Shown here: positions 168-55,786 of the stretch, in pieces
How positions within the stretch are numbered: position 1 is the stretch's first letter
Layout of the letters: the number at the start of each line of letters is the position of its first letter
Source of the DNA: Pseudomonadota bacterium
GTDB taxonomy: Bacteria; Pseudomonadota; Gammaproteobacteria; UBA1113
NCBI GenBank assembly: GCA_021781965.1
Contig: JAJXVU010000009.1
Span: 806 to 64,805, forward strand
Reading direction: 5' to 3'
Length of the DNA: 64,000 bases
The notes under the pieces: model-generated
Seen by the model: only the letters and a program-made list of their open reading frames with translations
Told to the model about the DNA's origin: nothing
Databases searched by the model: none
Made by a program: the position numbers and the translations under genes

Positions 168-195
168 AAACGTAACTACTCGCGCTTTGTACTAA

Positions 196-290
196 GAAAA
201 ACGTATATTGGATAGATTAGAGTATATCTTCGCCTTCCGTGACCGAAAGGGCGCAGATAGGGAGAATAGTTACTATTTATCACCAACAAT
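196..290. repeat. Dispersed GC-rich REP-like intergenic repeat (copy A), immediately downstream of the MFS gene stop
   Basis: tagagtatatcttcgccttccgtgaccgaaagggcgcagatagggagaatagtta is shared with the copy at 1596-1720 (taaagtatatctcagccgcc...gatggggagaatagttattc). Confidence 0.6.
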
Positions 291-291
291 A

Positions 292-1542
292 TCACTCCCT
301 AACCGGCTCGCGGATCCACACTAATACCAACAAAGCTAACAAAAGAGAAACAGGTAATATACTTAAGGCCATCGTATAGGACGATATCGAAAAATTGGTT
401 GTATTCTGTGATACCTCCTGACTCTTCAACAAAAATCCCACTAAAGGCATAAACAAAGGCGCACCAAAGATAATGCTCAGCATATTAGTAAAACCCATGG
501 CTGTACCGCGGACTTCCTCTGGGGCAATTTCATTGACCAAGGCGAAAGGCAACATATAAACACTGGAAAAGACCCCCGTTAAAAAGAATAAAGCAATAAC
601 ATACGCAAAACGCAAATGCGGAATATACAAAGCCATGCTGAAAGTAACAAAAGCGGCTAAGGCGCCGATAGCCATCACATTCTTTCTACGACGAAAGAAA
701 TCCGACAAATGCCCTAAGAATGGACAACCTAGCCCCGCACCTAAAAATAAAGCCAAATTCCCTATGGCCGCTACCTGTATTTTAACCCCATAACGCACCA
801 TTAAATAAGGAATACACCAATACGTGGCTAAAAGGCTAATCACAGGGAATATTAAGCCTGAAAATAAACCATTCAACCAAACTTGAGGTAATCTTAAAAC
901 AGCTGTCAATTGTTGTTTAATGGATAAATCGGAAGCAGCCTTTTTCAGATGGTTGCTTTGTGCCGGTCGATCCCGTAAAAAAATAGCCATAAACACTGTC
1001 AACACTAAACAGAAAATACTGGCACAAACCAGCACAGTACGCCATCCCACATGAATTGCTGCCGTAGAAATGATTTCACTGCCTACTCCTCCCGAAAGCA
1101 TTGCTAAGGCTTCACTTAGGCCCACCACAAAAGCAAAATATACGGGCGTAAACCAAGTGCCAATTAGATAAAAACCACAGGCCAATGCTGGAGCTGTACC
1201 CAAGCCCGTGAGCATCCTAGACCAAACTGCTGTGTGCACATTCGGACTCATTGCAAATAATAAAGTCCCCGCGGCGCAAATAATTGAGCCTGCAACCAAG
1301 ATGGTTTTAGGCCCTAAGCGATCGACCAACATCCCCCCGGGTATTTGTAACAATAAATAAGTCCAAAAATAACTAGAAGAAACTATTCCTATCGCCGCTA
1401 CATCCGTATTAAAATCTTTTGCTAAGAAGGGAGCCATGCCACTGACAGAGCCTTGTAGTACAAATTGTAGTAATAAAAAGATAATGGCCAGGCCCCACAT
1501 AAACCAGGCTTTAGAACTAGGGACTTCGTCGCGTGTAAACAT
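292..1542 (-). CDS. MFS transporter, 12-TM
   Basis: 416-aa ORF, hydrophobic throughout, MFS-like loop motifs (GxLVDRLGPK). Confidence 0.8.
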   Translation of the reverse strand: MFTRDEVPSSKAWFMWGLAIIFLLLQFVLQGSVSGMAPFLAKDFNTDVAAIGIVSSSYFWTYLLLQIPGGMLVDRLGPKTILVAGSIICAAGTLLFAMSPNVHTAVWSRMLTGLGTAPALACGFYLIGTWFTPVYFAFVVGLSEALAMLSGGVGSEIISTAAIHVGWRTVLVCASIFCLVLTVFMAIFLRDRPAQSNHLKKAASDLSIKQQLTAVLRLPQVWLNGLFSGLIFPVISLLATYWCIPYLMVRYGVKIQVAAIGNLALFLGAGLGCPFLGHLSDFFRRRKNVMAIGALAAFVTFSMALYIPHLRFAYVIALFFLTGVFSSVYMLPFALVNEIAPEEVRGTAMGFTNMLSIIFGAPLFMPLVGFLLKSQEVSQNTTNFSISSYTMALSILPVSLLLALLVLVWIREPVRE

Positions 1543-1595
1543 CTTATTCTCTCTATGTAACTATTTGCGCCTTATTGGAAGAAGCTCATATTGCG

Positions 1596-1720
1596 TGCAT
1601 TAAAGTATATCTCAGCCGCCCGCTCTCTAACACCCGCGGCTCGGAAAGTCGCGGCTCAGTTCATCCGTTTGAAACGGATCATCAACCGTTAGGGAGCGGA
1701 TGGGGAGAATAGTTATTCTT
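1596..1720. repeat. Dispersed REP-like repeat (copy B, composite) between the MFS gene and the carbamoyltransferase stop
   Basis: Contains cccgcggctcggaaagtcgcggctc, a perfect hairpin atccgttt-g-aaacggat, and ccgttagggagcgg, which is the reverse complement of the core ccgctccctaacgg. Confidence 0.6.
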
Positions 1721-3440
1721 TAACTACTAACACATCTTCCATGATCAAATACCGTAAATCACAACCAAAAAACATATTTAAAGCATCTTCTGGCGTACAC
1801 ACCATAGGCTCACCACGACGGTTTAAAGAAGTGTTTAATACCACGGCATTACCCGTTAAACGTTCTAAAGCACTGATCAACTCATAATAACGCGGATTGG
1901 ACTTTTGTGTCACCACCTGTGCTCGTATAGTACCATCTTCATGCACTACCTCAGGTATGCGCGCTTTCCATTCTGGTGCCACATCAAAGGTTATGGTCAT
2001 ATAAGGTGCAGGATGTGTGCTTTGTAAGATATCTTTAGCCACACTGTCCAATAGGCTGGGGCAAAAAGGCCGCCAACGCTCACGATACTTAATCTGTTGA
2101 TTGATTTTATCTGCGATGCCCGGAGCATTAGGACAACCTAAAATGCTGCGGTTGCCCAAGGCCCTAGGACCAAATTCCATACGCCCCTGAAACCAAGCCA
2201 AAGGTTCACCCTTAGCTAGCAATTTAGCCGCATACTCTACCGTATTATCCAATATTCGAAAGCTAGGTCTAGCGACGTGTTGCTCACAGGCCTTTACACA
2301 CGCTTCTGTTGTATAACTAGGTCCTAAATAAACATGCTCTAAAGGCTGTACCGGAATGGAATGTAAAGATGTAGCATAAGTAGCAGCGCCCACTGCCGTA
2401 CCGGCATCATTGGCTGCGGGTTGCACAAATAATTCTTTTAATCCGGGTAGCTGTAATAGCCTTTGGTTGAGCTTCACATTTAAAGCCACTCCACCGGCAA
2501 AACATAAACGCCCCGTTTCTTGAATAATATCACCTAAATAATGTTGTACTAAAGCAAGCACGCTATCTTCCAACATTTTTTGAATGCCTGCGGCATAATG
2601 TACATACGGTTCATCAATCTCGTCACCCACGCGCATGGGCCCTAGCCAATCGACCAACTTCGAACTAAAATAATAAGATTGTCCGCTTTGTTTATGGCGT
2701 CGTAAGCCTACGGTATTAACCAAACGCGTATTGACTCTAAATTTTTTGCCATTAAAATCCAATAAAGGCGATAGATCATAACGGCTAGCATCGCCATAGG
2801 GCGCCATGCCCATCACCTTAAATTCACCATCTAGCATTTCAAAGCCCAAATATTGGGTCATAGCACCATATAAACCGCCCAAAGAATCGGGATCGAAGAA
2901 TTCTTTGATCTTATGAATGTGACCATTTTCATCAGCATAGCCTAGAAAAGTAGAGGCATATTCTCCCTTACCATCTACTCCCAATATGGCTGCTCTACCT
3001 TTAAAACCGCTTAAATGATAAGCACTGCTGGCATGAGTTAGATGATGCTCTATAGGCATAAATTGTGTTTTTTGCAGATCAAAGCCCAAATCGGTTAAAA
3101 AAGAAAATACTCTTTTTTCATTGCGCTTATAGTGCCGATTACCATTAAATAAAGCATCTAAGGCTCTATCCGGAGCATACCAATAGCGTTTGGCATAGTG
3201 CCACCGCGCGGCCGTTCCTAAACCAATGGGAGCGAAAGGAAAAGCGACAATGTCTATATCTTTAGGATTTAGCCCCGCATCTTGCAAACACCAGCGCGTT
3301 GCTTCTAATGGCAATTTATTTTTAGCATGTTTATCGCGTATAAAGCGTTCTTCTTCCGCAGCACAAACCAATTTTCCATCCACAACCAACGCCGCTCCCG
3401 CATCGTGCGATACAGCCCCGGATAATCCCAAAATTTTCAT
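1713..3440 (-). CDS. Carbamoyltransferase (NodU/CmcH family)
   Basis: 575 aa. N-terminus MKILGLSGAVSHDAGAALVVDGKLVCAAEEERFIRDKH is typical of NodU-type O-carbamoyltransferases. ATGA overlap with the upstream kinase gene. Confidence 0.85.
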   Translation of the reverse strand: MKILGLSGAVSHDAGAALVVDGKLVCAAEEERFIRDKHAKNKLPLEATRWCLQDAGLNPKDIDIVAFPFAPIGLGTAARWHYAKRYWYAPDRALDALFNGNRHYKRNEKRVFSFLTDLGFDLQKTQFMPIEHHLTHASSAYHLSGFKGRAAILGVDGKGEYASTFLGYADENGHIHKIKEFFDPDSLGGLYGAMTQYLGFEMLDGEFKVMGMAPYGDASRYDLSPLLDFNGKKFRVNTRLVNTVGLRRHKQSGQSYYFSSKLVDWLGPMRVGDEIDEPYVHYAAGIQKMLEDSVLALVQHYLGDIIQETGRLCFAGGVALNVKLNQRLLQLPGLKELFVQPAANDAGTAVGAATYATSLHSIPVQPLEHVYLGPSYTTEACVKACEQHVARPSFRILDNTVEYAAKLLAKGEPLAWFQGRMEFGPRALGNRSILGCPNAPGIADKINQQIKYRERWRPFCPSLLDSVAKDILQSTHPAPYMTITFDVAPEWKARIPEVVHEDGTIRAQVVTQKSNPRYYELISALERLTGNAVVLNTSLNRRGEPMVCTPEDALNMFFGCDLRYLIMEDVLVVKE

Positions 3441-4879
3441 AATAAGCCAGCCTCTTTAAAAGCAGTAACAAAGGCTTGCTGCAATACAGGCCTGTTCCGC
3501 CAAATTTTTAAGAATCGTTTAACATCTTTGTTAAACGTGCGCGTAAATAATAACTTCCAAGGATACACGCGCAGATTATCTAAGCCCAATAAATACAACT
3601 TATCGCCACAAACCTGGAAATTCTCCGATTTTACATCGCGGTGACACAAACGATTTTGTTTTAAAGCATTCATCGTTTGTACCACTTTAGCAATCATCTG
3701 CTGTTGTTGTTCATGCAGATCGCAAAAAGAATGCAGATAATCCTGCAATGTTTGTCCGGGCACATATTCCATTACAAAATAATCGCGATGCTGCAACACT
3801 CCCCATTTTTTTTGTAATATGGCTATGGGCTTTGCGGTCAAAATCTGCAATGATTGCAAGCGATTTGCGTTTTGCCACGATAGTCCCGCATGTGTGTCTT
3901 TAATAACATGCTTTAAGCCATGCCACCAAGACCCGGCACTATATTGCTTCACCACCCAATCGCGTTCATTCCATTGATAACGAAAAATATTATTGGCTTT
4001 GCCGTGTTTTAAGATCTCAAAATAAGTTTCTGGTTGCTGTGTAAAATGATGAAACATGGTGGCTACAGATTCTTTTTGTTCTACAGCCGCAACATACTTG
4101 TAAGACCCTAATTTGCCTAGTGTAAAAGCACTGCATTCTCGCCATGCTTTAGACTGCGTCTTTCTTTGCCTGTACAGGCTTTTTTGAGTAATTTTCTTCT
4201 GCAATAGAGGCACCCAAGCCTCAGGAAATGCAAACAGTTGTGAGGCCTTTTCCATTAATATCGTCCACAATAGTTCTTGATCTAGTGTAGAAAATTGAAT
4301 AAAAAAGTCGGCTAGATTACTTAATTGTGCACGATACGACAAAAAACCGACCTTTCTAGCACATTTAACATCCATACCATCAATTATATATAATTGTTTT
4401 GCATCCGTTAAGATATTGTCTAAATGTAAATCGTTATGATATATACCTTGCTGATACATTTTTGCTAATTGTTGCAGCATAGAGGATAAACAGTCTTTTT
4501 TTTGCTGATCGTTCCAAAAACCCCACTCTGAAGCCACGGTATGAGTATTTTCTAAATAGGAGAGCACTAATAAAATACTGTCTTCTAACACGGAATATTC
4601 TAACACCTTGCTAGTGGCAATACCGCATTGCTGTAATAACTCCAGTCCTCTCATTTCGCGACGCACATGACGCAGACCTTGTTTGTCATAGAACAATTTA
4701 ACAATACTTTTTTGCCCTTGGTATTCTGCCAAAAAAGTAGCACGTCGTGCTGTTAAATCGCGCAGCATTTTTTGCAAGAAAATAGGTTGATCAATTGCAC
4801 CCCGAACCCAACACAAAGGCTCTTGCCACTGTTTTTGTCGCAACAAATCTAATAATTGTGCAGTGTTGATTTTATTCAT
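3437..4879 (-). CDS. LPS-kinase family protein with two tandem kinase-like domains
   Basis: 480 aa. N-terminal domain has YHNDLHLDNIL and IIDGMDV (Kdo/WaaP-type lipopolysaccharide kinase motifs). C-terminal domain has CHRDVKSENFQV (HRDxKxxN catalytic loop). Confidence 0.7.
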   Translation of the reverse strand: MNKINTAQLLDLLRQKQWQEPLCWVRGAIDQPIFLQKMLRDLTARRATFLAEYQGQKSIVKLFYDKQGLRHVRREMRGLELLQQCGIATSKVLEYSVLEDSILLVLSYLENTHTVASEWGFWNDQQKKDCLSSMLQQLAKMYQQGIYHNDLHLDNILTDAKQLYIIDGMDVKCARKVGFLSYRAQLSNLADFFIQFSTLDQELLWTILMEKASQLFAFPEAWVPLLQKKITQKSLYRQRKTQSKAWRECSAFTLGKLGSYKYVAAVEQKESVATMFHHFTQQPETYFEILKHGKANNIFRYQWNERDWVVKQYSAGSWWHGLKHVIKDTHAGLSWQNANRLQSLQILTAKPIAILQKKWGVLQHRDYFVMEYVPGQTLQDYLHSFCDLHEQQQQMIAKVVQTMNALKQNRLCHRDVKSENFQVCGDKLYLLGLDNLRVYPWKLLFTRTFNKDVKRFLKIWRNRPVLQQAFVTAFKEAGLL

Positions 4880-4895
4880 ATTTAATACAAACCCA

Positions 4896-5735
4896 TCATA
4901 CGCTACTCAACTTACCTGAAAAATTTTTCCATAAATTTTTTATTTTTCGCGATTGCCGTGGTTTGCTCAATCTAAGAGACATCCTTTGCCACAAAGCTTT
5001 TATGTCCTTTTTACTCGCACCGGCTCCCAGATAGGCCTTAATAAAACGCCATTTATCTGTGGCCTGGATTTTATTAATTCTGGTTCTGAATAAACTGTCC
5101 AGATCTATGCTTTCACAATATTGTTTAGAAAATCCATAGCGTAATTTTTCTAAATCAATGATACTGATTTTCACTTCATCATTATCAAGATTCAAAAAAA
5201 CATGCTTAAATACCAAGCAACAATGTTTATAATGATTCTGATGGATTTTGCCAACTACCCTGGCTAATTCATTGATAATGCGATTAAGCAACGCGCGTTC
5301 TGGAAAACCTGTTGCCTCCCATTGTTCAACCCATTCTTTTAGTGACTTATAGCCGGTGAGCTCTTCTGTCATTAAAATAGCTTCTTTACCGCGTTGGCTA
5401 TAGTAGATAGGAGTCACCGTAGGAATTTGATGTTTATTAAAACGGCTAATATTGCAAAATTCACGATTAAAAGTAGGTCTCCCCTTAATAGGATGTAAAA
5501 ATGAAGGGCACATATGTTTCGCTTGTCTTTTTAAAAAGACCGGCCTTTCTATTCCTGTAGTATCACGCAACACGATGCGTACCACGCCGCTCCAGCCGCC
5601 ACGTCGTCGATTAGGCTCTTCTACCCAACGTGTTTCAAAATTTTTGTTTTGCTCACAATTCCAAATATCCTCAAAAGAATTGAGGCCTTGTAGTCGTAAA
5701 ATATCTTCCCATTCTTTGGCTATATATGTTTTCAT
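4896..5735 (-). CDS. Lipopolysaccharide kinase family protein (InaA/WaaY/Kdo-kinase-like)
   Basis: 279 aa, conserved kinase-loop region (HQNHYKHCCLVFKHVFLNLDNDEVKISIIDLEKL), in LPS core locus context. Confidence 0.65.
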   Translation of the reverse strand: MKTYIAKEWEDILRLQGLNSFEDIWNCEQNKNFETRWVEEPNRRRGGWSGVVRIVLRDTTGIERPVFLKRQAKHMCPSFLHPIKGRPTFNREFCNISRFNKHQIPTVTPIYYSQRGKEAILMTEELTGYKSLKEWVEQWEATGFPERALLNRIINELARVVGKIHQNHYKHCCLVFKHVFLNLDNDEVKISIIDLEKLRYGFSKQYCESIDLDSLFRTRINKIQATDKWRFIKAYLGAGASKKDIKALWQRMSLRLSKPRQSRKIKNLWKNFSGKLSSV

Positions 5736-5769
5736 TGTAAATTCTTCTCCTTATAAATTTTAGGGTTCA

Positions 5770-7158
5770 CTATCCAACCCCCTTACGCACTGCTTTTTGT
5801 TGTAAGCTATGCGCTTTGCGCTCTACACGCTGCCATAATTTCTTTTGCAAACGATACGGCTTCCCGCCATTATAGCAGCGTATAAAATACAACACATCAC
5901 GGGCGCTAACACCATACTCAAACGCAGAATAATATAAAGCGCTTAAGTCTTTAATACGCCAGCGTCGGGAAAATCTTTTGTGTTGCATGCGATGCAAATC
6001 AATCAAATAATACTTATCGTCTTCATCCAATGCCTTTAAAAAATGACATAGATATAAATCCCTATGAAACCAACGTTCATCGTGTATAGCTTTAACATAA
6101 TTGGCCAATTGACGTATAAGCTTGTTTCTTTCGTTTCTAGAAGGCGGATTGTTACGCCACTCTTGACAATAGCTTTCCAGGCTCTCTGTTGCAGTCAATT
6201 CACGCGTCAATAAAAAAGATTGTCGTTTAAAGGAAAGCATTCCTCGTTCAGCAAAGGCAACCGCATCCAACGTAGGTAATTTTAATGATTTTAATTTAGC
6301 AATGGCTTGCCATTCCGTGCGCGCACTGACTATAGGCGAGCGTAATGATAACCAATTCTTTAGCCACTCATTAAAACCTATACCCTGATGCAACTTGGCA
6401 TAAAAACCTTGGCCCTCACACTCAAAACGCAGTGTTTTGCGCCCTTCTTTGTATCGTACTACTTCGCCTTCCAGCTCCATAATGCGATCAAATATCGCAG
6501 GCTCGCAGCCATAATGAGCCATAGCCGCATTGGCGCCAAAAGGTTTCAATAATTTTGGTTGCTCCAAATATTCTAATAAATAATCCCCGAAGCCGCCGCC
6601 TAAACTTTGCCCTCTTTGCAGAGGATGGATCTGTATGTTGGTTTGCGATTGTTCGCAGGTCTCTAAACTTAACCAATGCAAGCGACTCGCTGGCGTACGA
6701 TAATGTACTTTGATAGCCCGCAATACCATTAAGCTGGATGATACTACCTGGCAATGGCTAGTCATCGATAAAATGCTTCTTTCAAATTGTAGGCGTTGTC
6801 GATGGCGTGGTATAGAACGCCGTGCCCCCTGCACTAATTCCGCAATACAAGGTTCCTTAGCATAATAAATATCTAGTCCAGGAATAGCATTAAAGCCCAC
6901 CACGCAATCATATTGTTCTTTAATGCGCGCATCATGTACAAAACGTGCTAAATAAGCATATTGTCTAAAGAGAGGGACGCCTTGTTTTTTAATACTGTGT
7001 ATAGTAGCACCCTTAGGTTGATCGCCACGCCATTCTAATGTATAAATATCTACACTATGCCCTGCCTCTAAGCATTTATTAATTGTGTTCAAAAAATCGT
7101 GCTGCAGATCTTCGCCAAAAACATAGCTAAAAATAACAAAACATAATCGTTGCTTCAA
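5770..7158 (-). CDS. waaP: WaaP-like LPS core heptose kinase with an extra N-terminal domain
   Basis: 462 aa. The C-terminal half carries WFHRDLYLCHFL, matching the WaaP catalytic motif FHRDCYICHFL. ATGA overlap with the waaC stop. Confidence 0.65.
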   Translation of the reverse strand: MKQRLCFVIFSYVFGEDLQHDFLNTINKCLEAGHSVDIYTLEWRGDQPKGATIHSIKKQGVPLFRQYAYLARFVHDARIKEQYDCVVGFNAIPGLDIYYAKEPCIAELVQGARRSIPRHRQRLQFERSILSMTSHCQVVSSSLMVLRAIKVHYRTPASRLHWLSLETCEQSQTNIQIHPLQRGQSLGGGFGDYLLEYLEQPKLLKPFGANAAMAHYGCEPAIFDRIMELEGEVVRYKEGRKTLRFECEGQGFYAKLHQGIGFNEWLKNWLSLRSPIVSARTEWQAIAKLKSLKLPTLDAVAFAERGMLSFKRQSFLLTRELTATESLESYCQEWRNNPPSRNERNKLIRQLANYVKAIHDERWFHRDLYLCHFLKALDEDDKYYLIDLHRMQHKRFSRRWRIKDLSALYYSAFEYGVSARDVLYFIRCYNGGKPYRLQKKLWQRVERKAHSLQQKAVRKGVG

Positions 7159-8183
7159 GATGGAACCTCCTGCAATAACGATTGTAGTGTTTGCATGACG
7201 TAGTTATCACTTAAAGTATTGTAACAAGGCGGAGTTTCGCCCTCTTTCACCCAACGACATTGTTGTTGCAAACAAGGCGCACAATGATATTGCACGCTTA
7301 GATGCTGTTGATTGTGGCCGCGTGTGCCGGTTTTATTGGCATCCGTTGATCCATATAAAGAAAGGGTGGGCACTGACAGAGCCGCTGCTAAATGACCCAA
7401 GCCCGTATCCACAGCGATTACTGCTTGTGCATTGATGAGCTCTAATGCTATCTCACGCAAATTTAAGGGAGGTAATACCTGTCCATCACAGGCCTTTGCA
7501 ATCGCTTCCGCACGTTCCTTTTCAACGGTATTACCCCAAGGCAAGCGAATTTGATAACCGGCTTTTTTTAATTTCTGTCCTAAGGCTTGCCATTCTGGTA
7601 ATGGCCATAATTTAGTATCCCAAGTCGTACCGTGTAAGAATAGAATATATTGAGCAGATTGTGCTGACAAATAAGGATTAAAGAAAGCCTGTAAACCATA
7701 ATCGGCTTCCGTATTAGGCATAGGATAATGCAAAGCCTTAGCGAACAATTGCCGTACACGCTCTATGGCATGCGTTTGCCAATCTATAGCGTGACGATGA
7801 TGGTATAACCACGGTGCAACCGGATCGCGTGATGAACCCATAGCCAAACCATGTCTTTTCCCTTTGGCTACAAAAGCCATGAGCGCGCTTTTTAACAGCC
7901 CTTGAGCATCAATAATGATATCGTAGTGATTTTGTCTTAATTGCTTGTATACGGATTGCCAATGCCCTTGTTGCCAAGCTTGCCATGGTGTTTTGCGCCA
8001 TTTGCGAAACTCTATTTCTATAATGCGTTTGACGCCTTTATGCCAGCGCAAGGGTTCGCTGAAATTTTTTTCCACCAGCCAATCGACTTCTAAATCGGGA
8101 TATACGCGCAAAGCATCCGTCAATGCAGGCAAAGTATGGATGACATCTCCCAAAGAAGACGTTTTAACAATCAAAATTTTCAT
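7155..8183 (-). CDS. waaC: ADP-heptose:LPS heptosyltransferase I
   Basis: Internal start MKILIVKTSSLGDVIHTLPALTDA is the canonical WaaC N-terminus, so the ORF-track N-extension is rejected. The ATG at 8183 overlaps the waaF stop TGA (ATGA). Confidence 0.9.
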   Translation of the reverse strand: MKILIVKTSSLGDVIHTLPALTDALRVYPDLEVDWLVEKNFSEPLRWHKGVKRIIEIEFRKWRKTPWQAWQQGHWQSVYKQLRQNHYDIIIDAQGLLKSALMAFVAKGKRHGLAMGSSRDPVAPWLYHHRHAIDWQTHAIERVRQLFAKALHYPMPNTEADYGLQAFFNPYLSAQSAQYILFLHGTTWDTKLWPLPEWQALGQKLKKAGYQIRLPWGNTVEKERAEAIAKACDGQVLPPLNLREIALELINAQAVIAVDTGLGHLAAALSVPTLSLYGSTDANKTGTRGHNQQHLSVQYHCAPCLQQQCRWVKEGETPPCYNTLSDNYVMQTLQSLLQEVPS

Positions 8184-9217
8184 GCAGCTACCTCTGCCGC
8201 TGCCATGAGCTTTTGTAAAGATTGTAACACTTGCGATGGTGCGATTTGTTTTAAACAGTTTAGATGGCCCAAAGGACATTCGCGTTGAAAACACGGGCTA
8301 CAGGGTAAAGACAATTGCACTATGGCAACGCGCGAGCTTAATGGCGGTGTAAATGCAGTAGAAGAAGAGCCATAAATAGCGACCATGGGTTTATCCAGCG
8401 CTGCGGCTATATGCATTAAACCTGAATCGTTGGTAACCACAGCATCCACTGTAGATAATAAATCAACGGCTTGTTTGAGATCCGTACGACCACATAAATT
8501 ATCACAAGCTTGCGGCACCACCTTCATGATTTCATCGGCTAACACTTCGTCTTTTTTAGACCCCAGCAACCACACTGCGTAGCCTAAATCATGCAAATGC
8601 TGCGCTAATTCGCCGTAATAGTGTGTAGGCCAGCGTTTAGCCGGACCATATTCCGCACCCGGACACAAGGCTACTACTGGCTTATCATTGCTTAAACCCA
8701 GTTGTTGTTTTAATTGTACGGCTGCAGTGGTATCGCCCACTAAACTAGGATACGGATAAGGTTTAGATAAAACAGCGTTTTTTTCCAAGCCCAGGGCCAT
8801 GAAGCGTTCAATCATCAGTGGATATTTTTGTTTATCTAAAAAACGCATTTCGTTTAATAAGCCAAAACGCATTTCGCCCTTAAAGCCGCGGCGTTTTGCA
8901 ATGCGCGCTACCCAGGGAATGAGTGCTGATTTCCATGAATTGGGTAAAACGATAGCCATATCGTATTGTTCGCGGCGTAAGGCACGGCCTATACGCCAAC
9001 GGTCTTTGAGTCCTAACACACCATGGCCTAGGGGTAAAACATGGGCATGGCTGACCTCTGGCATTTTCTGCGCCACAGCCGCAGTCCAGGCCGGGGCTAA
9101 AATATGCAGCGATGCCATAGGATAGCGGCCCTTGAGTAATTTAAACAAGGTTTGAGCCATTACCATGTCACCAACCCAAGCCGGTGCGATTATCAGTATT
9201 TTTTTCATGTAAATCAA
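8180..9217 (-). CDS. waaF: ADP-heptose:LPS heptosyltransferase II
   Basis: MKKILIIAPAWVGDMVMAQTLFKLLK is the canonical WaaF/RfaF N-terminus (GT9 family). Confidence 0.9.
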   Translation of the reverse strand: MIYMKKILIIAPAWVGDMVMAQTLFKLLKGRYPMASLHILAPAWTAAVAQKMPEVSHAHVLPLGHGVLGLKDRWRIGRALRREQYDMAIVLPNSWKSALIPWVARIAKRRGFKGEMRFGLLNEMRFLDKQKYPLMIERFMALGLEKNAVLSKPYPYPSLVGDTTAAVQLKQQLGLSNDKPVVALCPGAEYGPAKRWPTHYYGELAQHLHDLGYAVWLLGSKKDEVLADEIMKVVPQACDNLCGRTDLKQAVDLLSTVDAVVTNDSGLMHIAAALDKPMVAIYGSSSTAFTPPLSSRVAIVQLSLPCSPCFQRECPLGHLNCLKQIAPSQVLQSLQKLMAAAEVAA

Positions 9218-9327
9218 TCAGCTACAATTTAAGTTGCCTAGTCAGAATCCGCTTTTAGGCCGTTGTGGATCTGTTCAAAATAAGGTCTCTATTGTACCAC
9301 TTTTGCCTAAAATAAAAAAGGCCCAGA

Positions 9328-9352
9328 GCCGCGACCGAAAGGGAGCGGTTAA
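9328..9352. repeat. REP-like repeat core (variant, reverse orientation) downstream of gloB
   Basis: gagccgcgaccgaaagggagcgg is the reverse complement of ccgctccctttcggtcgcggctc, a 2-3 nt variant of the core. Confidence 0.5.
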
Positions 9353-9373
9353 ATGATTATCTCTTAATTCATT

Positions 9374-10147
9374 CTAAAAATTATTTTTCCATTCTCTTAT
9401 GGCTGAAAATACCTTGACTGCTGTCGCTAAAGGCTGCCCTACTTCCGCTTCTGCCGCTGCAATCACCGTGGCTACATCCGTACGCAAAAATGGGTTAATC
9501 TTTTTCTCTAAGGCTAAGGTTGTAGGCACACTAGAATTGTTGCCTAGACTAGACACAAACGCCAAGTGACATACTATATCTTCATTTTTAGGCTCCACCT
9601 GCTTTGCAAATTGCAAATTTTTGAGCGTATATTCATGGGCACAATAGACGAGTGTATCCTCAGGCAAACTGGCTAAAGTCATCAACGAATCGACCATTTG
9701 CGACATGGTGCCTTCAAAAACACGGCCACAGCCGGCTGAAAATAAAGTATCACCGCAAAAAAGTAAATGTTCCTGCGCACAATAATAAGCGATATGCTCT
9801 AAAGTATGTCCGGGAATAGCCAATACTTCGAAAGATAAATTACACTCGGGTAAAAATATTTTTTGCCTATCCGTCACTACATGGGTCGCCAAAATATTGC
9901 TGTGCTTTGGGCCATAGACCGGAACAGTGTATTTTGCCTGTAATTCGGCGACACCCCCGCAATGATCGTGATGACGATGCGTGATCAATATCCCACAAAG
10001 GTTTAAACCCTGCGTTTTTATATACTCTATCACAGGCTTAGCCTCACCCGGATCGACCACCCACAGGCTTTTATTCGTCTCATTGGCGAGAGCCCAGATA
10101 TAGTTATCTGTAAAGGCTTTAATGGGATCAATATGGATCGACCTCAT
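9374..10147 (-). CDS. gloB: Hydroxyacylglutathione hydrolase (glyoxalase II)
   Basis: 257 aa with the metallo-beta-lactamase motif THRHHDHCGG and GloB-like length. Confidence 0.9.
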   Translation of the reverse strand: MRSIHIDPIKAFTDNYIWALANETNKSLWVVDPGEAKPVIEYIKTQGLNLCGILITHRHHDHCGGVAELQAKYTVPVYGPKHSNILATHVVTDRQKIFLPECNLSFEVLAIPGHTLEHIAYYCAQEHLLFCGDTLFSAGCGRVFEGTMSQMVDSLMTLASLPEDTLVYCAHEYTLKNLQFAKQVEPKNEDIVCHLAFVSSLGNNSSVPTTLALEKKINPFLRTDVATVIAAAEAEVGQPLATAVKVFSAIREWKNNF

Positions 10148-11520
10148 TGTTTATTCTCCTTTTCTATACCTGCGTAAAAACGGTGAGCAACCCTATATCG
10201 TTTATAATACGGCAACAGTATGGCTGCAGCGACAATAAAACCACTGCCAAAGCCTAGGCGTAAAGCAATTGGGCCATAATGCATTACAATGCCGATAATA
10301 TAGCATGCTGGAATACCGACAAACCATAGACCGACAATCCCAATGAGCATCGGAAATTTAGAGTTTTCCATGCCTCTGAGCACATTCGTTAAGAGATTGC
10401 GGATGGCATCAACAAACATAATAGGGATAGATATGACCAACAGCCAATAGGTTAGCCGAATCAAGCTTGTGTTATTTGCATCATGCACATTCACAAACAA
10501 TGCCATCAGTTGTAGTGGCATAATAAATATTATCACTGCAAACAGCGCAAATAATACTATGACTAATATAAACGCCGCCCTAAGATATTTTTCAATCAAA
10601 TGCTGATGACCACTTCCGCGGCTAGCAGCGGTCAAAATCGACAATGCTTGAGCAATGCCCATAACGATCATCACAGCAAAAATGGTATATTGCGACACAA
10701 TCTGTACACTAGCTAAAGCAATAATCCCTAAATAACCCATTATATAGGTGGATACCGTTATAGCCCCTAATTCGCCCAAGAACTGCAAACCAATGTGGAT
10801 ACCAATTTTATAAACTTGCTTAATTAAGCCCCAATCATATAGCTTTACGGGGTTAGAACATAGATAATGCCAGGCATAACTAAAGCGCATATAAATAACC
10901 ACCATAACCAAAACTATAAGCTGTGCGATCAGAATCGCACATGAGCTACCGGCTAAACCCATGTTGGCAGATCCCAGGATAAATGCATAACTGAGGCCAA
11001 TGATGAATGGTAGGAAAAAAAAGCTAAAAATCGTACTCACCATGGGTTTGCCAATTCCATTATAAAATTGCCCCGCTGTGGCACAAAGCATCGTTGGTAT
11101 GATGCTAAGGGCTGCATACTGAAAAAAATCAGCCGTTAATGCCACTATTTCTGGCGGTTGATTAAACAAGGATAAGATCTGACTGCCATGCCATAAAACC
11201 AGTGTTGCTGGAAGGCCTAAAATTAAGCAGAGCCAAAATCCACTCACTAAAGTATTCGCTACCTTTCCCTTATCACCACCCGCATGAAATTTACCAATTA
11301 AAATACTCACCGAGTAAAGGCTTGCAACCGTAAAAGCTCTTACCGTGATATAACTAATATTGGCAATAGCAAATGCAGCTAATTCGGGTTTACCCAGTTT
11401 CCCCAACATCATCGTAATAAAAAATGTGGGGATCACCCCCAGTAGATTCGTGGCACTGATCGGCACTGCGTAGTGGATGATGCGCTTTAATAATATGGGT
11501 AGAGATTCACTATGGTTCAT
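10144..11520 (-). CDS. MATE family efflux transporter
   Basis: 458 aa, 12 TM, NorM/DinF-like. Stop overlaps the gloB start (ATGA). Confidence 0.75.
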   Translation of the reverse strand: MNHSESLPILLKRIIHYAVPISATNLLGVIPTFFITMMLGKLGKPELAAFAIANISYITVRAFTVASLYSVSILIGKFHAGGDKGKVANTLVSGFWLCLILGLPATLVLWHGSQILSLFNQPPEIVALTADFFQYAALSIIPTMLCATAGQFYNGIGKPMVSTIFSFFFLPFIIGLSYAFILGSANMGLAGSSCAILIAQLIVLVMVVIYMRFSYAWHYLCSNPVKLYDWGLIKQVYKIGIHIGLQFLGELGAITVSTYIMGYLGIIALASVQIVSQYTIFAVMIVMGIAQALSILTAASRGSGHQHLIEKYLRAAFILVIVLFALFAVIIFIMPLQLMALFVNVHDANNTSLIRLTYWLLVISIPIMFVDAIRNLLTNVLRGMENSKFPMLIGIVGLWFVGIPACYIIGIVMHYGPIALRLGFGSGFIVAAAILLPYYKRYRVAHRFYAGIEKENKQ

Positions 11521-11532
11521 AATAGAACATCC

Positions 11533-12405
11533 CTACTGCCGTTGCAACCACTCGATGATCCCTGAGAAATCTTTATCCTGGCCACCTGCATCGCAAAACG
11601 CTTGATACAAATCACGCGCCTTATCGCCCAAGGGTGTTGCGGCAGTTACACTGTCGGCGGCATCTTCGGCTAAATTCAGATCTTTTAACATCATTTTGGC
11701 CATAAAGCCCGGTTCATAATTTTTGTTAGCAGGCGTATGCGGTAGAATTCCAGGCACGGGGCAATATTGTGTTAAAGACCAGCATTGTCCAGAAGCTTCC
11801 TTACAAATATCAAAAAAAGCTTGGGGTTCTAAGCCTAGCGCCTTGCCTAAATTAAACGCTTCACACACACCGATCATAGAAATACCTAATAACAGATTAT
11901 TGCAAATTTTTGCCATTTGCCCACAGCCAGCAAGACCCGCATGAAATATTTTTTTGCCCATGGCTTCTAAAATCGGTTTAACCGTTGCAAAGGCTTCATC
12001 GCTACCACCCACCATAAAGGTTAAAGTGCCTGCAGCAGCGCTGGCGGTACCGCCCGAAACCGGCGCATCCACACATACACCACCCTTTTGTGTAACCGCT
12101 GCATGTATGTCTTTTGCGGTTTGTACATCGATAGTGGAACACTCCATGTAGATGATCGCTTTAGGCGCGTGTGCTAGCAATCCCTTATCACCCAAATATA
12201 CCTCGCGTACATGCGCACCCGCAGGTAACATAGACACTACATAATCCACATCTTGTATAAGTTCGGCTAAACTTGCTGCTATTTTAACGCCTGATAACGA
12301 TACCGGAGTTACATCGTAAACGGTTAAGCTATGCCCTGCTTTAACTAGATTCACTGCCATAGGCCCACCCATATGACCTAAACCTATAAACCCTATTTTA
12401 GCCAT
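11533..12405 (-). CDS. mmsB: 3-hydroxyisobutyrate dehydrogenase
   Basis: MAKIGFIGLGHMGGPMAVNLVKAGH Rossmann N-terminus, 290 aa, HIBADH family. Confidence 0.85.
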   Translation of the reverse strand: MAKIGFIGLGHMGGPMAVNLVKAGHSLTVYDVTPVSLSGVKIAASLAELIQDVDYVVSMLPAGAHVREVYLGDKGLLAHAPKAIIYMECSTIDVQTAKDIHAAVTQKGGVCVDAPVSGGTASAAAGTLTFMVGGSDEAFATVKPILEAMGKKIFHAGLAGCGQMAKICNNLLLGISMIGVCEAFNLGKALGLEPQAFFDICKEASGQCWSLTQYCPVPGILPHTPANKNYEPGFMAKMMLKDLNLAEDAADSVTAATPLGDKARDLYQAFCDAGGQDKDFSGIIEWLQRQ

Positions 12406-12496
12406 TGTATTTTCTCCTTTTGCTATTATTACCTCAATATATTCGTAACTACTCGCGCCTTGTTGTGAGAAAAATGGTAACTGCTCTCCCCATGCT

Positions 12497-12530
12497 CTCT
12501 AGTAACTTTCCGCTCCCTAACGGTCGCGGC
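12497..12530. repeat. REP-like repeat core downstream of recJ
   Basis: ccgctccctaacggtcgcggctc is identical to the core of the units at 61371-61488. Confidence 0.6.
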
Positions 12531-12534
12531 TCTG

Positions 12535-14271
12535 TTATTCCACTACTTCTAAATGTTCAATCATCAGTTGCACATTGCGTTTGCTTTGATATTCATTCAC
12601 ATCCAATCTATACACGGCACGCACGCGTTCAGCGCGACGATTCGGCCATTCATCGGTATTAATATTAAAATAAATCGCATCTAAAACACGATGACTACCC
12701 GGAAAACCCAATTGCAATTTTAAATGTTTGGCGCCGACGATGCGTTGATTCAGTACATTAAACTCACCATCAAAACTGGGTTCCGGAAAAGCCTGTCCCC
12801 AGGGCCCGCCTTCACGTAATTGAGTCGCCATATCTAAAGTATATTCGTCTAAAGCCAATTCGCCATCGCTGTAATAAACGCCTTGCAGATCGTCTGCCGT
12901 TAAACACTTACCTATTTCAGCAGCAAAAGCAGCGCTAAATGCGGCAAAATCTTTTTCATTTAAACTTAAGCCCGCGGCCATTGCATGACCACCGAAACTG
13001 AGTAACACCCCCGGACAGTGTTTATCCACTAAATCTAATACATCGCGTATATTAACACCCTTCACCGAACGTGCCGAACCCTTTAATACCGTACCCTCAT
13101 TATGCGCAAAAGCAATCACCGGGCGATGATAGGCTTCCTTAATACGCGAGGCCAAAATACCAATAACACCTTGATGCCAGCTGCGATCGTATAAACACAA
13201 ACCCGCGGGTAGATCTTTACCTTCGCCTAAATGCAGAGCTTGAACGATTTGCATCGCTTGCAATTGCATGTCATCGCCTATTTGTTTGCGCTCTTCATTT
13301 AATAACGACAGTTGTTCGGCAATATGGCGTGCGTGATCGTGATCCTCTGTAAGCAAACACTCAATGCCCAAGGACATATCATCTAGACGTCCAGCGGCAT
13401 TTAAACGTGGGCCTACGCCAAATCCCAAGTCGGTCGCCACTAACTGATGTACGCTGCGGCCCGAAGCTTCTAATAAAGCACGTATACCCGGGCGCATACG
13501 CCCTAAACGCATACGTCTTAATCCTTGATGCACTAAAATACGATTATTGCGATCCAATGGCACCACATCGGCCACCGTGCCTAAAGCCACTATATCTAAA
13601 GCATGCGCTAAATTAGGCTCGACAATATTATTTTCTTGAAACCAATTTAATTCTCGTAAACGCGCGCGCAACGCTAATAATACATAAAAAGCAACGCCCA
13701 CACCGGCCAAAGCTTTGCTAGCAAAGTGGCAGCCCGGTTGATTGGGATTAATAATCACTTCCGCAGAAGGCAAAGTATCCCCAGGTAAATGGTGATCGGT
13801 GACCATGACCTTCATGCCCAATTCATGCGCTTTGGCTATGCCCTCGTGACTGGAAATGCCGTTATCCACGGTGATAATCCAATCCGGATTGCGTTCTTTA
13901 GCTACCAACACAATTTCCGGCGTTAAACCATAACCGTATTCAAAACGATTCGGTACTAAATAATTCACTTCTTGCAAGCCAAAAGAGCGTAATACCGAAA
14001 CTAATAACGCCGCACTGGTGGCGCCATCGGCATCGAAATCGCCAATGATCAGTACCCGCAATTGTTGTTGTAACATTTCCACCAAGTATTGCGTGGCAAG
14101 TTCTATATTCAGTAAATCGTGATAGGGTAAAAGTTGATTGAGTTCGTGATCCAATTGCGCCATATCCGACACATCGCGAGCCGCATAAATACGCTGTAAT
14201 AAAGGCGGTAAGTGATCCCCTAATTTTTGTTGGTTATTTTCATTGGCGTGCCTGCGCACAATCTTTGGCAT
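12535..14271 (-). CDS. recJ: Single-stranded-DNA-specific exonuclease RecJ
   Basis: 578 aa with DHH/DHHA1 motifs (VLIIGDFDADGATS, VTDHH) and an OB-fold C-terminus. Confidence 0.9.
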   Translation of the reverse strand: MPKIVRRHANENNQQKLGDHLPPLLQRIYAARDVSDMAQLDHELNQLLPYHDLLNIELATQYLVEMLQQQLRVLIIGDFDADGATSAALLVSVLRSFGLQEVNYLVPNRFEYGYGLTPEIVLVAKERNPDWIITVDNGISSHEGIAKAHELGMKVMVTDHHLPGDTLPSAEVIINPNQPGCHFASKALAGVGVAFYVLLALRARLRELNWFQENNIVEPNLAHALDIVALGTVADVVPLDRNNRILVHQGLRRMRLGRMRPGIRALLEASGRSVHQLVATDLGFGVGPRLNAAGRLDDMSLGIECLLTEDHDHARHIAEQLSLLNEERKQIGDDMQLQAMQIVQALHLGEGKDLPAGLCLYDRSWHQGVIGILASRIKEAYHRPVIAFAHNEGTVLKGSARSVKGVNIRDVLDLVDKHCPGVLLSFGGHAMAAGLSLNEKDFAAFSAAFAAEIGKCLTADDLQGVYYSDGELALDEYTLDMATQLREGGPWGQAFPEPSFDGEFNVLNQRIVGAKHLKLQLGFPGSHRVLDAIYFNINTDEWPNRRAERVRAVYRLDVNEYQSKRNVQLMIEHLEVVE

Positions 14272-17499: not shown

Positions 17500-19833
17500 T
17501 TACATTGAACACCCAAATTCTAATGGATTACTCGGTGATGTTTCCCTCATTTCACTCATAAATATTCTCTTGAACCTATAGTCAGGAATCAATTGCTTTT
17601 TTCTTTCTTGTAATACATTATATCTATCGATTATTTTCTTTGGAGAATGTTCGCTCACCTTACCTAATAGCTCTAACCTTGCCTCAACGCCTACCAATGT
17701 TAAGTTATCGATGTTTCCATTGACAGAATGAATCTTTTTCGCAAAAAAACCATGTCTAGAATCACGAAGTTCTGCTCTCAAGGCCTCTCTACCCACTTTA
17801 AGCCCAAAATGGGCATGGAATACATTCCCAATCGTAATCAATCCTTTGGCAACCATTGAAATGGCCGTAGTGGCAACAGAAGAAGAAGCGGCATTCTGCT
17901 CGCCTGTTTGGGCAGGCCCTGTGTTCAAATGTTCAATGCGCTTTCCCATGTTCTTTAAAAACAAACCTGTAACAGAGAGCACAGCACCGCCCACATAAGC
18001 CCCTGTTGAAATAAAATAAATGCTTTCGTCCAAAACTTTAAATCCAGCACGAATGCAAGAGGTCATTGCTGAATTTTGTCCTGGCGAAAATGGTTTCTCG
18101 CCATTTTGCGTTAAAATATCGTCTAAGCGCTTTAAACAACGGCTCTTGCTGCCTTCCAAATGCAACAACATGGAATGTTTATAAACCAGAACGAGTAAAG
18201 CTTGTTTCACTACTTCAGGCTCGCCGCCTCGCTTCATGATCTTTAAGGCTTCTTTTTGAATGGTTTCCGCTCTAAGATGTTCTGCTTTTTTCTTAAAAAT
18301 ATCGTGACCAGCTTTCTTGCGTTGATACTGAAAGGTGGCGCTATAAATGTTTTGGCTTAGAGCCGCTACTTCATTTAAAGCATTGTTTTTTTGTTTGGCT
18401 TTACCACTAAACTTCAAAGCACTCACCTTGTCGGGATAAACCAACTCAATAGCAGACAAAGATTCAAGTAAAGGAGTGCCTTGAGGTTCTTGAGGAACCA
18501 ATACAAACTTATCTTCTTCTGTTTTATGCGCGATTAAATTTTGATTTATTAAATAACAATGTAAGTTCGGACTTTCTACCTTCATACGCTTAAGTTCTTC
18601 GTGCACAGCCTCTAAACTTGCCATTATCTTACCGCTGTCTTGTGGGAAACCCGGGTCATATATTCCTTTTTCAAATAAATAATTGAAAGTTTTAGGATAG
18701 GTTATCTTGAACAATTCACGGTCTAATTTATTCACAAAAAACCAGCTGTCCCTCACATAATATTCTAATTGTTGCGCCAATTTTCGCTGAACCTTGGGCA
18801 TGGGTAAACCGTTCAGCAGAGTAACAGCCTGACCCGCCTTCGCGCAATTTTCTTCCTGTAAATGGTGCAAAGCAAATTCATTGCACAAATAAGCATTGCT
18901 TATTTTATACGCTGAATGTTCAATTATTTCTTTGCTCTCTTCAGGTGCTTCATCATCCGCTTGCTCAGCATTTACATATATATGGGGAGAAATCTCTTTT
19001 TGTTCAACTATTGTCGTACCTGCATGATTCACAAATGCTGGCATTTCTTCATACGAGGAACCATTGGTAATTAAAAATGAATAGAGCATAGACCATACGA
19101 TATGCCCTGTACTCTCTCGGCCATCTTCCACCCGACTGCTGCCAGGATGTACGTCGTACAGAGGTAACAGAGCCCTTTTAGTTTTAGGGGAAGCAAAAAT
19201 AAGACGCGTCATATCTTGGGGTTTAAAGTCGGGGCGCATTTCATGACTGTGCAATGGAAAAATAGCTGTATCCGCTATGGCCGGAATTATGCATGATTCT
19301 GGCACACCCTTTGCAGTAATGCCAGCAACAGGATCCGCCGCAAAAATATTGAGCTTTAGCGCATTTAATTTTTGAAGAAATACTTCGTCTTCCTTAGAAA
19401 GCGTCCCGTTTTCCTCTAACTCTTTTATATACGCTTCTAAGTAATTGGCAATGCGTATAGCGGTCACCGCCCCCCGGCTAAAACCAGTCAAATTAACCTT
19501 GAACTCCCCATTTTCTTCAAGGGATTTACCATCTAGCCACTTAATGATTCGAGCAACGCCGGTGCGTGCATTTCTCTCTACTTCCAAACCCGACAAAGAA
19601 ATACCATCTAAATAACTCTTCTCGTTTTGGCAGCCATCATAAAACTGACGGATAAAGGTTCTCTGCTGCATGTCGTGCGATTCACGGGTACCATAGAGAA
19701 ATAGGTTATAGATATTTGTTTTTTTTGCGCCTGTTTCTTCTGTGCTTATGTTCTCTGCATAGGGTTCTTTTGCACATACTTCTGCTGCGCTTGTATATTC
19801 TACGAGTCTTTCGTCTGGGGTCACACCGCTCAT
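17500..19833 (-). CDS. Large hypothetical protein (777 aa) with a GxSxG serine-hydrolase motif (GFSRG, DUF2235/Tle1-like alpha/beta hydrolase N-domain) and a long helical C-terminus; candidate secreted effector
   Basis: Long AT-rich ORF. The motif LTGFSRGAVTAIRIANYL follows a beta-strand-like stretch. No housekeeping homolog recognisable. Confidence 0.6.
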   Translation of the reverse strand: MSGVTPDERLVEYTSAAEVCAKEPYAENISTEETGAKKTNIYNLFLYGTRESHDMQQRTFIRQFYDGCQNEKSYLDGISLSGLEVERNARTGVARIIKWLDGKSLEENGEFKVNLTGFSRGAVTAIRIANYLEAYIKELEENGTLSKEDEVFLQKLNALKLNIFAADPVAGITAKGVPESCIIPAIADTAIFPLHSHEMRPDFKPQDMTRLIFASPKTKRALLPLYDVHPGSSRVEDGRESTGHIVWSMLYSFLITNGSSYEEMPAFVNHAGTTIVEQKEISPHIYVNAEQADDEAPEESKEIIEHSAYKISNAYLCNEFALHHLQEENCAKAGQAVTLLNGLPMPKVQRKLAQQLEYYVRDSWFFVNKLDRELFKITYPKTFNYLFEKGIYDPGFPQDSGKIMASLEAVHEELKRMKVESPNLHCYLINQNLIAHKTEEDKFVLVPQEPQGTPLLESLSAIELVYPDKVSALKFSGKAKQKNNALNEVAALSQNIYSATFQYQRKKAGHDIFKKKAEHLRAETIQKEALKIMKRGGEPEVVKQALLVLVYKHSMLLHLEGSKSRCLKRLDDILTQNGEKPFSPGQNSAMTSCIRAGFKVLDESIYFISTGAYVGGAVLSVTGLFLKNMGKRIEHLNTGPAQTGEQNAASSSVATTAISMVAKGLITIGNVFHAHFGLKVGREALRAELRDSRHGFFAKKIHSVNGNIDNLTLVGVEARLELLGKVSEHSPKKIIDRYNVLQERKKQLIPDYRFKRIFMSEMRETSPSNPLEFGCSM

Positions 19834-33670: not shown

Positions 33671-34540
33671 TTACTCAATATTTTGGACTTGTTCGCGCAT
33701 TTGTTCTATGAGCACTTTTAGATCAACCGCCGCCTTAGAAACCTGACTATCTAAGGACTTTGATGCCATAGTATTGGCCTCACGATTGAGCTCTTGCATC
33801 ATAAAGTCTAAAGTCTTACCCACGCTACCTGTTTGCTGTAACAGGCGGCGCACTTCGGCCACATGCGTTAATAGCCGATCGACTTCTTCGCTATTATCAA
33901 TCTTTTGTGCCCAAAATACCAATTCTTGCTCTAGGCGCTGTGCATCGCCTTGTACTGGGCTTTGTTGCAACCGCTCCAGCAACTTCGCCTGCTGGCGTTG
34001 CAATAATTCCGGTTGACGCAAACCTATTTCTTTGGCCAAAGCTTCTACCCTGTGCAAACGTTCAATAATAGCTTGTTTTAAGGCTTCGCCCTCTCTTTGA
34101 CGACTGTCATTTAAAAGCTTTATGCTTTGTTCTAAGGCCGTTACAGCGATGGTTTCGATCTGTGTGACATCGATTTCCACTTCGCTAATAATGCCCGGAT
34201 ACATCAACAAACAATCTAAAGAAGGCGCACTGTGTGAAAAGGGCGATAGCGTTTCAATACGTTCTACTGCAGTCAATAAAGCCTTCAGACGCGTTTCATC
34301 GCATTGTAAAGTGCCTGTTTTATCTATAGACCATTGTAATTTTAAGCTTACGTCAATGCGCCCACGCTCAATATGCTGGCGTATGACTTCGCGAAAACGC
34401 ATTTCCAATGCGCGCACGGCCTCGGGCAGACGCATTTGAATGTCTAAGAAACGGTGATTCACCGCCCTGATTTCCCAAGATAAAGCTCCTTGCGGATGCG
34501 CCAACTCATGGCGCGCAAACCCCGTCATACTGCGTATCAT
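33671..34540 (-). CDS. yicC: YicC-family stress-induced protein
   Basis: N-terminus MIRSMTGFARHE with YicC N-terminal and C-terminal domains. Confidence 0.9.
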   Translation of the reverse strand: MIRSMTGFARHELAHPQGALSWEIRAVNHRFLDIQMRLPEAVRALEMRFREVIRQHIERGRIDVSLKLQWSIDKTGTLQCDETRLKALLTAVERIETLSPFSHSAPSLDCLLMYPGIISEVEIDVTQIETIAVTALEQSIKLLNDSRQREGEALKQAIIERLHRVEALAKEIGLRQPELLQRQQAKLLERLQQSPVQGDAQRLEQELVFWAQKIDNSEEVDRLLTHVAEVRRLLQQTGSVGKTLDFMMQELNREANTMASKSLDSQVSKAAVDLKVLIEQMREQVQNIE

Positions 34541-55707: not shown

Positions 55708-55786
55708 GCTTAGAACGGCTCCCGTCACAGGATGACTTTGTTGGACTAAACTATTACAAGGATATCACAAAACCCACTGTTTTGGC

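Follow-up and report, generated by a model that had tools for sequence, protein, structure and literature searches.

What kind of element has placed the same short, GC-rich hairpin in several unrelated intergenic spacers is the question raised by contig JAJXVU010000009.1, of which a stretch of 64,000 nucleotides (nt), referred to below as the window, was analysed. The window organism is an uncultured gammaproteobacterium. Its repeats had been described in an initial annotation as resembling repetitive extragenic palindromic (REP) sequences or bacterial interspersed mosaic elements (BIMEs), with miniature terminator-associated repeats as the alternative. The evidence presented here indicates, with a probability of roughly 75%, that the repeats belong, as non-autonomous REP-like elements, to the family linked with class 3 HuH-Y1 (TnpA-Y1) proteins and are likely mobilised in trans. 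The family is known but barely characterised, and the host lineage is new.

A search with the 23-nt core CCGCTCCCTAACGGTCGCGGCTC yielded four matches in the window at three or fewer mismatches and none in 100 shuffles. In a looser scan, the unit was read on the opposite strand as GAGCCGCGACCG-NN-AGGGAGCGG and the two central loop bases were ignored. Eight units were located in this way at five intergenic sites, designated A to E, which also contain one partial 5' arm, and the shuffled window gave no match at five or fewer mismatches. Outside the two variable loop bases, three of the eight units are identical to the pattern and five are decayed. An nhmmer profile built exclusively from the copies of other organisms recovered six of the eight at E<1e-3, together with two partial arms at site B, and found no further match anywhere in the 64 kb. 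The copy coordinates given in the initial annotation were all correct, the copy at 196-290 being a decayed variant, and the variation at the unit centre that it described is real: the central loop of the window copies is TAAC or TTTC, and the stem carries one G/A change. The repeats have a G+C content of 74% compared to 41% for the genome. All five sites are intergenic and none falls in coding sequence, which makes up 92.4% of the window. Each site begins 0-25 nt past the stop codon of an adjacent gene, as had been claimed, and this placement partly follows from the intergenic location itself because nearly all genes lie on the minus strand and a large part of each short spacer is taken up by the elements.

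The unit is a strand-specific imperfect hairpin of 25-27 nt, 5'-CnGA-G-CCGC-GA-CC-GNNA-GG-GA-GCGG-3', in which a tandem G.A/A.G internal loop separates a lower stem of 4 bp from an upper stem of 2 bp; a GNNA loop closes the hairpin and a CnGA tetranucleotide, the foot, precedes it. Seven window units and the partial arm carry the foot, as CCGA, CAGA or CTGA; the exception is the unit at 1677-1699, whose 5' arm is decayed. Core and foot were identified as the hairpin listed beside class 3 TnpA-Y1 genes in Table S1 of Quentin et al. 2018 (BMC Genomics 19:475, PMC6006769), where the Legionella pneumophila sequence is CCGAGCCGCGACCGTAAGGGAGCGGA and the Solibacter usitatus sequence is CAGAGCCGCGACCGTTAGGGAGCG... 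The window unit differs from these only at the two central loop bases, which are also variable within the family, and the structure published in the same table, .....((((..((....))..)))), is the fold predicted for the window unit. The Planctopirus limnophila hairpin in Table S1 is a more diverged form. As described in that paper, class 3 HuH-Y1 proteins are rare, occur in Planctomycetes, Acidobacteria and Proteobacteria, and have a mean pairwise identity of 60.7%. The match came from the supplementary table; a full-text literature search using the core sequence returned none. The REP/BIME-like interpretation is thereby borne out, and the suggestion of an IS200-like tnpA or REP-associated tyrosine transposase (RAYT) partner leads to the correct literature, namely that on class 3 TnpA-Y1.

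To describe the anatomy of the family, 239 foreign loci with 548 relaxed matches were used. Of these units, 70% have the foot CnGA and 16% have nCGA; the loop is GTGA, GTAA, GTCA or GTTA. At pair 10-17, C-G accounts for 407 units, G-C for 46 and A-T for 12, non-Watson-Crick combinations amount to about 2%, and this covariation demonstrates that the hairpin is maintained across the family. The outer stem could not vary among these matches because it was fixed by the search pattern. The G.A opposition at 8-19 is invariant, that at 9-18 is A.G or, in a linked subtype, C.A, and T-G wobble variants occur at pair 11-16. The linked subtype, GAGCCGCGCGCGTNAGCAAGCGG, was observed in Bryobacterales loci (L021, L030, L035, L073, L083 and L085) with a compensatory G-C at pair 10-17; it is usually the inverted partner of a canonical unit, an arrangement reminiscent of the Y and Z REP types in the BIMEs of Escherichia coli. 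Foreign units lying no more than 120 nt apart are arranged tail-to-tail in 97 pairs, head-to-head in 58 and in tandem in 66, and locus L019 contains perfect 64-nt palindromes. At 81 of 683 full units, the foot and 5' arm alone also recur as one to five tandem "stutter" copies, which lie on the 5' side of the unit and repeat every 15-21 nt. Stutter copies were found across phyla (L018, L024, L039, L041, L047 and others), and the partial arm at 1648-1659 is their counterpart in the window.

Copies of the unit are widely dispersed in other organisms. Scanning one genome per species with CCGMTCCCTWWCGGTCRCGGCTC identified at least 119 loci, and the matches listed included Bryobacterales, Solibacteraceae, other Acidobacteriota, Planctomycetota, Anaerolineae (Chloroflexota) and three gammaproteobacterial contigs. 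At least 120 further loci were obtained in metagenomes with a core variant, 65 IMG/VR contigs carrying the unit were retrieved with a degenerate pattern, and core copies are present in finished chromosomes. Confinement of the core to the window, which in the initial annotation would have refuted the interpretation, is contradicted by these genome, metagenome and IMG/VR matches. The taxonomic range, which covers Bryobacterales/Solibacteraceae, Planctomycetota and Gammaproteobacteria including Legionella adelaidensis, is also the range reported for class 3 genes in PMC6006769. The copies are scattered among unrelated housekeeping genes with no recurrent neighbour, and all-against-all clustering of open reading frames (ORFs) in the 119 loci gave only ABC ATPases and SDR dehydrogenases. 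The plasmid collection matched solely in L. adelaidensis records, which are chromosome pieces, and a plasmid search with the Planctopirus variant returned nothing relevant. About 180 kb of these records contain scattered units, some of them inside coding sequences (CDS). In record L250, slightly decayed units at 6682-6704 and 40083-40105 are located within annotated CDS, at the 3' end of ttcA and where a mechanosensitive-channel gene overlaps aspS, and an IS110-family transposase is annotated at 28572-29534. The L. pneumophila flank variant GAGCCGCGACTGTGAGGGAGCGG was tried as a route to a REPtron and rejected, being widespread in metagenomes and not locus-specific.

The position of the host and the history of its copies were assessed from orthologous loci. 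The best named matches to the host SecY are a Legionellales metagenome-assembled genome (70% identity) and Legionella impletisoli (66%), and the RecJ matches are less informative. Site E, an array between secY and rpmJ, recurs in assemblies obtained independently from the window organism (L120, 99.8% identical). In a close relative with a 96% identical SecY (L248), the distance from the secY stop to the rpmJ start is about 27 nt compared to 137 nt with three units in the window, and the array is also absent between secY and rpmJ in relatives whose SecY is 93% and 88% identical. A relative with a 97% identical RecJ (L316) contains no unit in 21.7 kb. Its gloB-heptosyltransferase spacer retains the conserved promoter-proximal half and lacks the unit of site C. 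In its spacer downstream of recJ (approximately 11790-11950), an unrelated long palindrome of about 170 nt stands in place of the site D composite; this element has long terminal inverted repeats, CGTCATTGCGAGCTTGCGAAGCAATCCAGGA...TCCTGGATTGCTTCGCAAGCTCGCAATGACG. In a more distant relative with an 81% identical RecJ (L317), one unit immediately follows the recJ stop and the 21.7 kb contain three others. Since the sister lineage (SecY 96%, RecJ 97%) is devoid of repeats at the three orthologous spacers of sites C, D and E, the copies were recently gained or lost, and the unit content turns over within a few percent of protein divergence.

Comparison with described systems places the units closest to the class 3 hairpins of Quentin et al. 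2018, as given in that account, with which they have in common the stems, the 2x2 purine internal loop, the closing bases of the GNNA loop, the CnGA foot, a high copy number and the range over Planctomycetes, Acidobacteria and Proteobacteria. The present host differs in being a new uncultured gammaproteobacterial lineage in which a class 3 gene is not yet seen. Relative to the class 3 description in PMC6006769, lineage-specific mosaics with extra arms, a tandem triplet in the spc operon and the partial 5'-arm stutter are apparently new. Canonical REP, BIME and REPIN elements, which are associated with RAYT (TnpA-REP, class 2) proteins in E. coli, Pseudomonas and Stenotrophomonas, are likewise short strand-specific hairpins with a 5' tetranucleotide. 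They too are extragenic, number in the hundreds, occur singly, as inverted doublets or in clusters with additional motifs, and are presumed to have a trans-acting HuH-Y1 partner. Their foot, however, is GT[AG]G, whereas window and foreign units carry CnGA and would have a partner of a different Y1 class; because of this foot, the repeats are not canonical GTAG-tagged REPs. Canonical REP sequences are also species-specific, whereas the present core hardly varies among at least four phyla. The subterminal hairpins of IS200/IS605 and of derivatives such as palindrome-associated transposable elements (PATEs) are similar in combining an imperfect palindrome with a 5' guide tetranucleotide for a Y1 transposase acting on single-stranded DNA. 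In contrast to these, the present units have no transposase gene between hairpins and are solitary or multimeric, not left-end/right-end pairs.

These likenesses suggest a mechanism. TnpA of IS200/IS605 and class 2 TnpA-REP bind an imperfect hairpin on single-stranded DNA, and the tetranucleotide 5' of the hairpin helps to choose the cleavage dinucleotide by cross-complementarity (PMC8266576). For these related classes the single-stranded DNA guide mechanism is experimentally established, with further work cited as PMC3333891 and PMC3479197. By analogy with IS200/IS605 and with the TnpA-REP of E. coli and Marinomonas, the enzyme would be a class 3 HuH-Y1 protein whose gene lies elsewhere in the genome and which acts in trans on single-stranded DNA. 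It would bind the folded hairpin, and the CnGA foot may serve as the guide to a nearby cleavage dinucleotide. Cutting and rejoining by the enzyme would then copy or move units into intergenic DNA, where selection would keep only insertions just behind stop codons. Singlets, inverted doublets, tandem arrays and lineage-specific mosaics carrying additional arms would build up in this manner, much as in BIMEs. The enzyme partner in the host genome and its action on single-stranded DNA, as well as any side effects on mRNA, are what we infer beyond the repeats themselves. The unit, at 74% G+C, has not adjusted to the base composition of its host, in keeping with a constraint imposed by a sequence-specific partner; if a class 3 enzyme recognises it, both the cross-phylum conservation and this lack of amelioration in a 41% G+C host would stem from its being recognised by a conserved protein.

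Several observations weigh against this interpretation. We know of no biochemistry for class 3 enzymes. No HuH-Y1 ORF was found in the window with either a HuH...Y motif regular expression or phmmer, and neither method gave a match to a Y1 gene in about 2.5 Mb of repeat-centred loci. The targets of this search were the window, the 239 genome and metagenome loci, the 65 IMG/VR loci, the L. adelaidensis pieces and the relatives, and the phmmer query was an IS200 TnpA sequence. Because no Y1 gene lies in the window or the loci, the link between gene and repeat rests on the manual inspection of a few genomes reported in PMC6006769. The window orientation of the units shows no clear strand bias, with three on the plus and five on the minus strand in a small sample. 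With DNA parameters, the hairpin is the predicted fold and its stability is modest (-5.2 kcal/mol, z = -1.2).

The five sites differ considerably in their composition. The window has a G+C content of 41%, a negative GC skew throughout and genes nearly all on the minus strand; those flanking the sites encode an MFS transporter, a carbamoyltransferase, a heptosyltransferase, a MATE pump and a 3-hydroxyisobutyrate dehydrogenase or are gloB, recJ, rpsM, rpmJ and secY. The distance from a site to the next start is 34-106 nt, with the exceptions of site B, which ends 14 nt before the MFS start, and site A, which has no downstream start. Site A (172-273, plus strand), about 102 bp long, is a composite flanked by the ends of two convergent genes, a plus-strand ORF stopping at 165-167 and the MFS gene at 292. 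It contains a left module GTAACTACTCGCGC... (172-202), a 5' flank AGTATATCT (221-229), a decayed plus-strand unit with six mismatches (234-256) and a right module AGGGAGAATAGTTAC (259-273). Site B (1557-1716, plus strand), where a composite of about 160 bp takes up the entire carbamoyltransferase-MFS spacer, is a head-to-head doublet of units. Its left module GTAACTATTTGCGCC (1557-1571) and flank AAAGTATATCT (1602-1612) are followed by a minus-strand unit (1620-1642) with its CCGA foot extending to 1644, a minus-strand partial 5' arm CTGAGCCGCGAC (1648-1659), a small hairpin ATCCGTTTGAAACGGAT (1663-1679), a plus-strand unit (1677-1699) and a right module GGGGAGAATAGTTA (1702-1715) that overlaps the stop codon at 1713-1715.

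Site C (9324-9348, plus strand) is a single perfect unit at 9326-9348 with the foot CAGA and the loop GAAA, ending 25 nt from the gloB stop (9374) and starting 106 nt upstream of the heptosyltransferase start (9217). Site D (12445-12534, minus strand) combines a left module GTAACTACTCGCGCC (12445-12459), an inverted right module GTAACTGCTCTCCCCAT (12477-12493) and a perfect minus-strand unit (12510-12532), the CAGA foot of which extends to 12534 and directly adjoins the recJ stop codon (12535-12537). Site E (61371-61469, minus strand) is located inside the spc operon, between the secY stop (61474-61476) and the rpmJ start (61334-61336), with the array 4 nt from the former. Its three tandem minus-strand units, each with the foot CCGA, are perfect at 61371-61393, have two mismatches at 61410-61432 and have a decayed 3' arm at 61445-61467; the periods are 39 and 35 nt. 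Two outer modules are common to sites A, B and D, with GTAACTAYTYGCGCC...AAGAA on one side and ATRGGGAGARYAGTTAC on the other. These outer arms follow the pattern GTAACTAYT... / ...GGGGAGAATAGTTAC and constitute lineage-specific mosaic modules whose tips form an imperfect 9-bp inverted repeat; the composite at site D is rearranged.

The outer modules raise the alternative that the composites at A, B and D are miniature inverted-repeat transposable elements (MITEs) of an insertion sequence (IS) of the terminal inverted repeat (TIR) type, with ends GTAACTAYT...ARTAGTTAC and the REP core as cargo or as a later insertion. Known TIR-type MITEs, from intracellular Gammaproteobacteria and from other bacteria, include the Coxiella QMITEs and the Neisseria Correia elements, which are similarly small, dispersed and intergenic. 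The composites resemble them in being bounded, at sites A and B, by the short inverted repeat, with about 55 nt at the left end and about 15 nt at the right end in common, and a 117-nt stretch of site B folds as one long hairpin (-48.8 kcal/mol, z = -5.2). The reading is nevertheless improbable. No target-site duplication accompanies the composites, of which there are only three, one of them rearranged; the modules were absent from all other loci fetched before the relatives were added, and the relatives contributed one weak match with three mismatches to the right module only. At sites C and E, and in all copies from other phyla, the core stands by itself; it has neither terminal inverted repeats nor target duplications and is common to distant phyla. 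An "AGTATAT" arm also stands 5' of bare units at site E and in L317, which argues that it is a clade-specific 5' extension of the REP unit and not a transposon end. The composites are provisionally read here as BIME-like mosaics rather than a separate transposon. A minor possibility is that the element is independent of any resident class 3 transposase and was spread by transfer between phyla or by host copying, such as template switching at the hairpin loop. The search of 2.5 Mb that yielded no Y1 gene has to be set, in judging it, beside a core that is nearly letter-for-letter the same across phyla and the turnover seen between relatives at 96-97% identity. If units were copied by the host, the stutter copies would be a scar of that process.

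The other alternatives do not invoke a mobile element. Selection for a role in RNA, as terminators, stabilisers of mRNA 3' ends or structured cis-regulatory RNA, draws on the fold of the GAGCC strand (-13.8 kcal/mol, z = -3.45), on its GNRA-like loop and tandem G.A pairs, which are typical of RNA motifs, on the T-G wobble variants, and on a location just past stop codons that would suit 3'-end protection; RNA effects of this type are known for E. coli REPs (background in PMC6006769). The units, however, occur in both orientations relative to the minus-strand genes, five sense and three antisense, and as antisense RNA their fold is no more stable than that of shuffles (z = -0.77). The GC-rich stems are not followed by a T-run, a terminator scan gave no matches at the repeats, and one array lies within an operon of ribosomal genes, so neither an intrinsic terminator nor the terminator-associated alternative of the initial annotation was upheld. 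Presence or absence differs between relatives at 96-97% identity, and tandem and inverted multimers are the behaviour of mobile DNA. At its gathering threshold, Rfam 15 had no family for the window or for 12 foreign loci, and at E<=10 a perfect doublet matched only generic hairpin and miRNA models far below threshold. A primary RNA role is thus unlikely, and secondary effects on mRNA are possible. Chance similarity, an assembly or adapter artefact, or a clustered regularly interspaced short palindromic repeat (CRISPR)-like array is effectively excluded. The shuffles contained no matches, the same sites recur in the independent L120 assemblies and copies occur in finished chromosomes. The regular 67-69 nt spacing in some IMG/VR contigs recalls a CRISPR array, but the 68-nt arrays of L256 and L292 have identical spacers and are therefore tandem duplications, and the window periods come with related spacers. 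In these contigs, which are classified as viral, the arrays are five-fold (L256, 1365-1659; L292, 13157-13451) and each block comprises a partial arm, a full unit and GTCGTCACGCTGCTCCCCAACC.

Other features of the window were also recorded. A second, unrelated GC-rich palindromic repeat is present as a near-perfect 60-nt palindrome centred on TTTAGGCGAGGCGCCTCGCCTAAA in the rplO-secY spacer (62815-62874) and as a half copy in the rpsM-rpsK spacer (60714-60751); this element also looks inserted, because the rplO-secY spacer of L248 measures only about 22 nt. At 55787-55854, between the ORFs at 54841-55728 and 55858-56292, there is an inverted repeat (TAGGGCTTGTAGCCATTGGGTTTGTC...) with perfect 26-bp arms and a 16-nt loop. 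The minus-strand ORF at 21478-23376, encoding a 632-aa protein, contains at least six tandem 99-nt repeats (22360-23142) that encode ankyrin repeats, and a DUF5621 protein is encoded nearby at 17500-19833; both are features typical of intracellular Legionellales-like bacteria. The region 34000-40000 is low in G+C (33-38%) and carries a gene for a 1414-aa protein with formyltransferase, adenylation, carrier and thioesterase domains, resembling a nonribosomal peptide synthetase, followed by a hybrid histidine kinase gene; this stretch may be an acquired island. A 12-nt tandem repeat (TCTTCGTCTAGY) was located at 47904-47987 inside the ORF at 47786-48535, for which Pfam gave no match.

A hitherto unannotated family of repeats in an uncultured gammaproteobacterium is now placed in the little-studied class 3 HuH-Y1/hairpin system, for which one short published description exists. 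For organisms carrying such units, caution is advisable in annotating intergenic "RNA hairpins" and stop-codon-proximal sequence, and the units are useful as markers for strain typing. Three additions to the knowledge of the family make the system easier to study: a core that is near-invariant across phyla, unlike the species-specific canonical REPs; clean filled and empty sites in close relatives, including an insertion inside the ribosomal spc operon; and a recurrent 5'-arm stutter, which may report on the mechanism by which these elements are copied.

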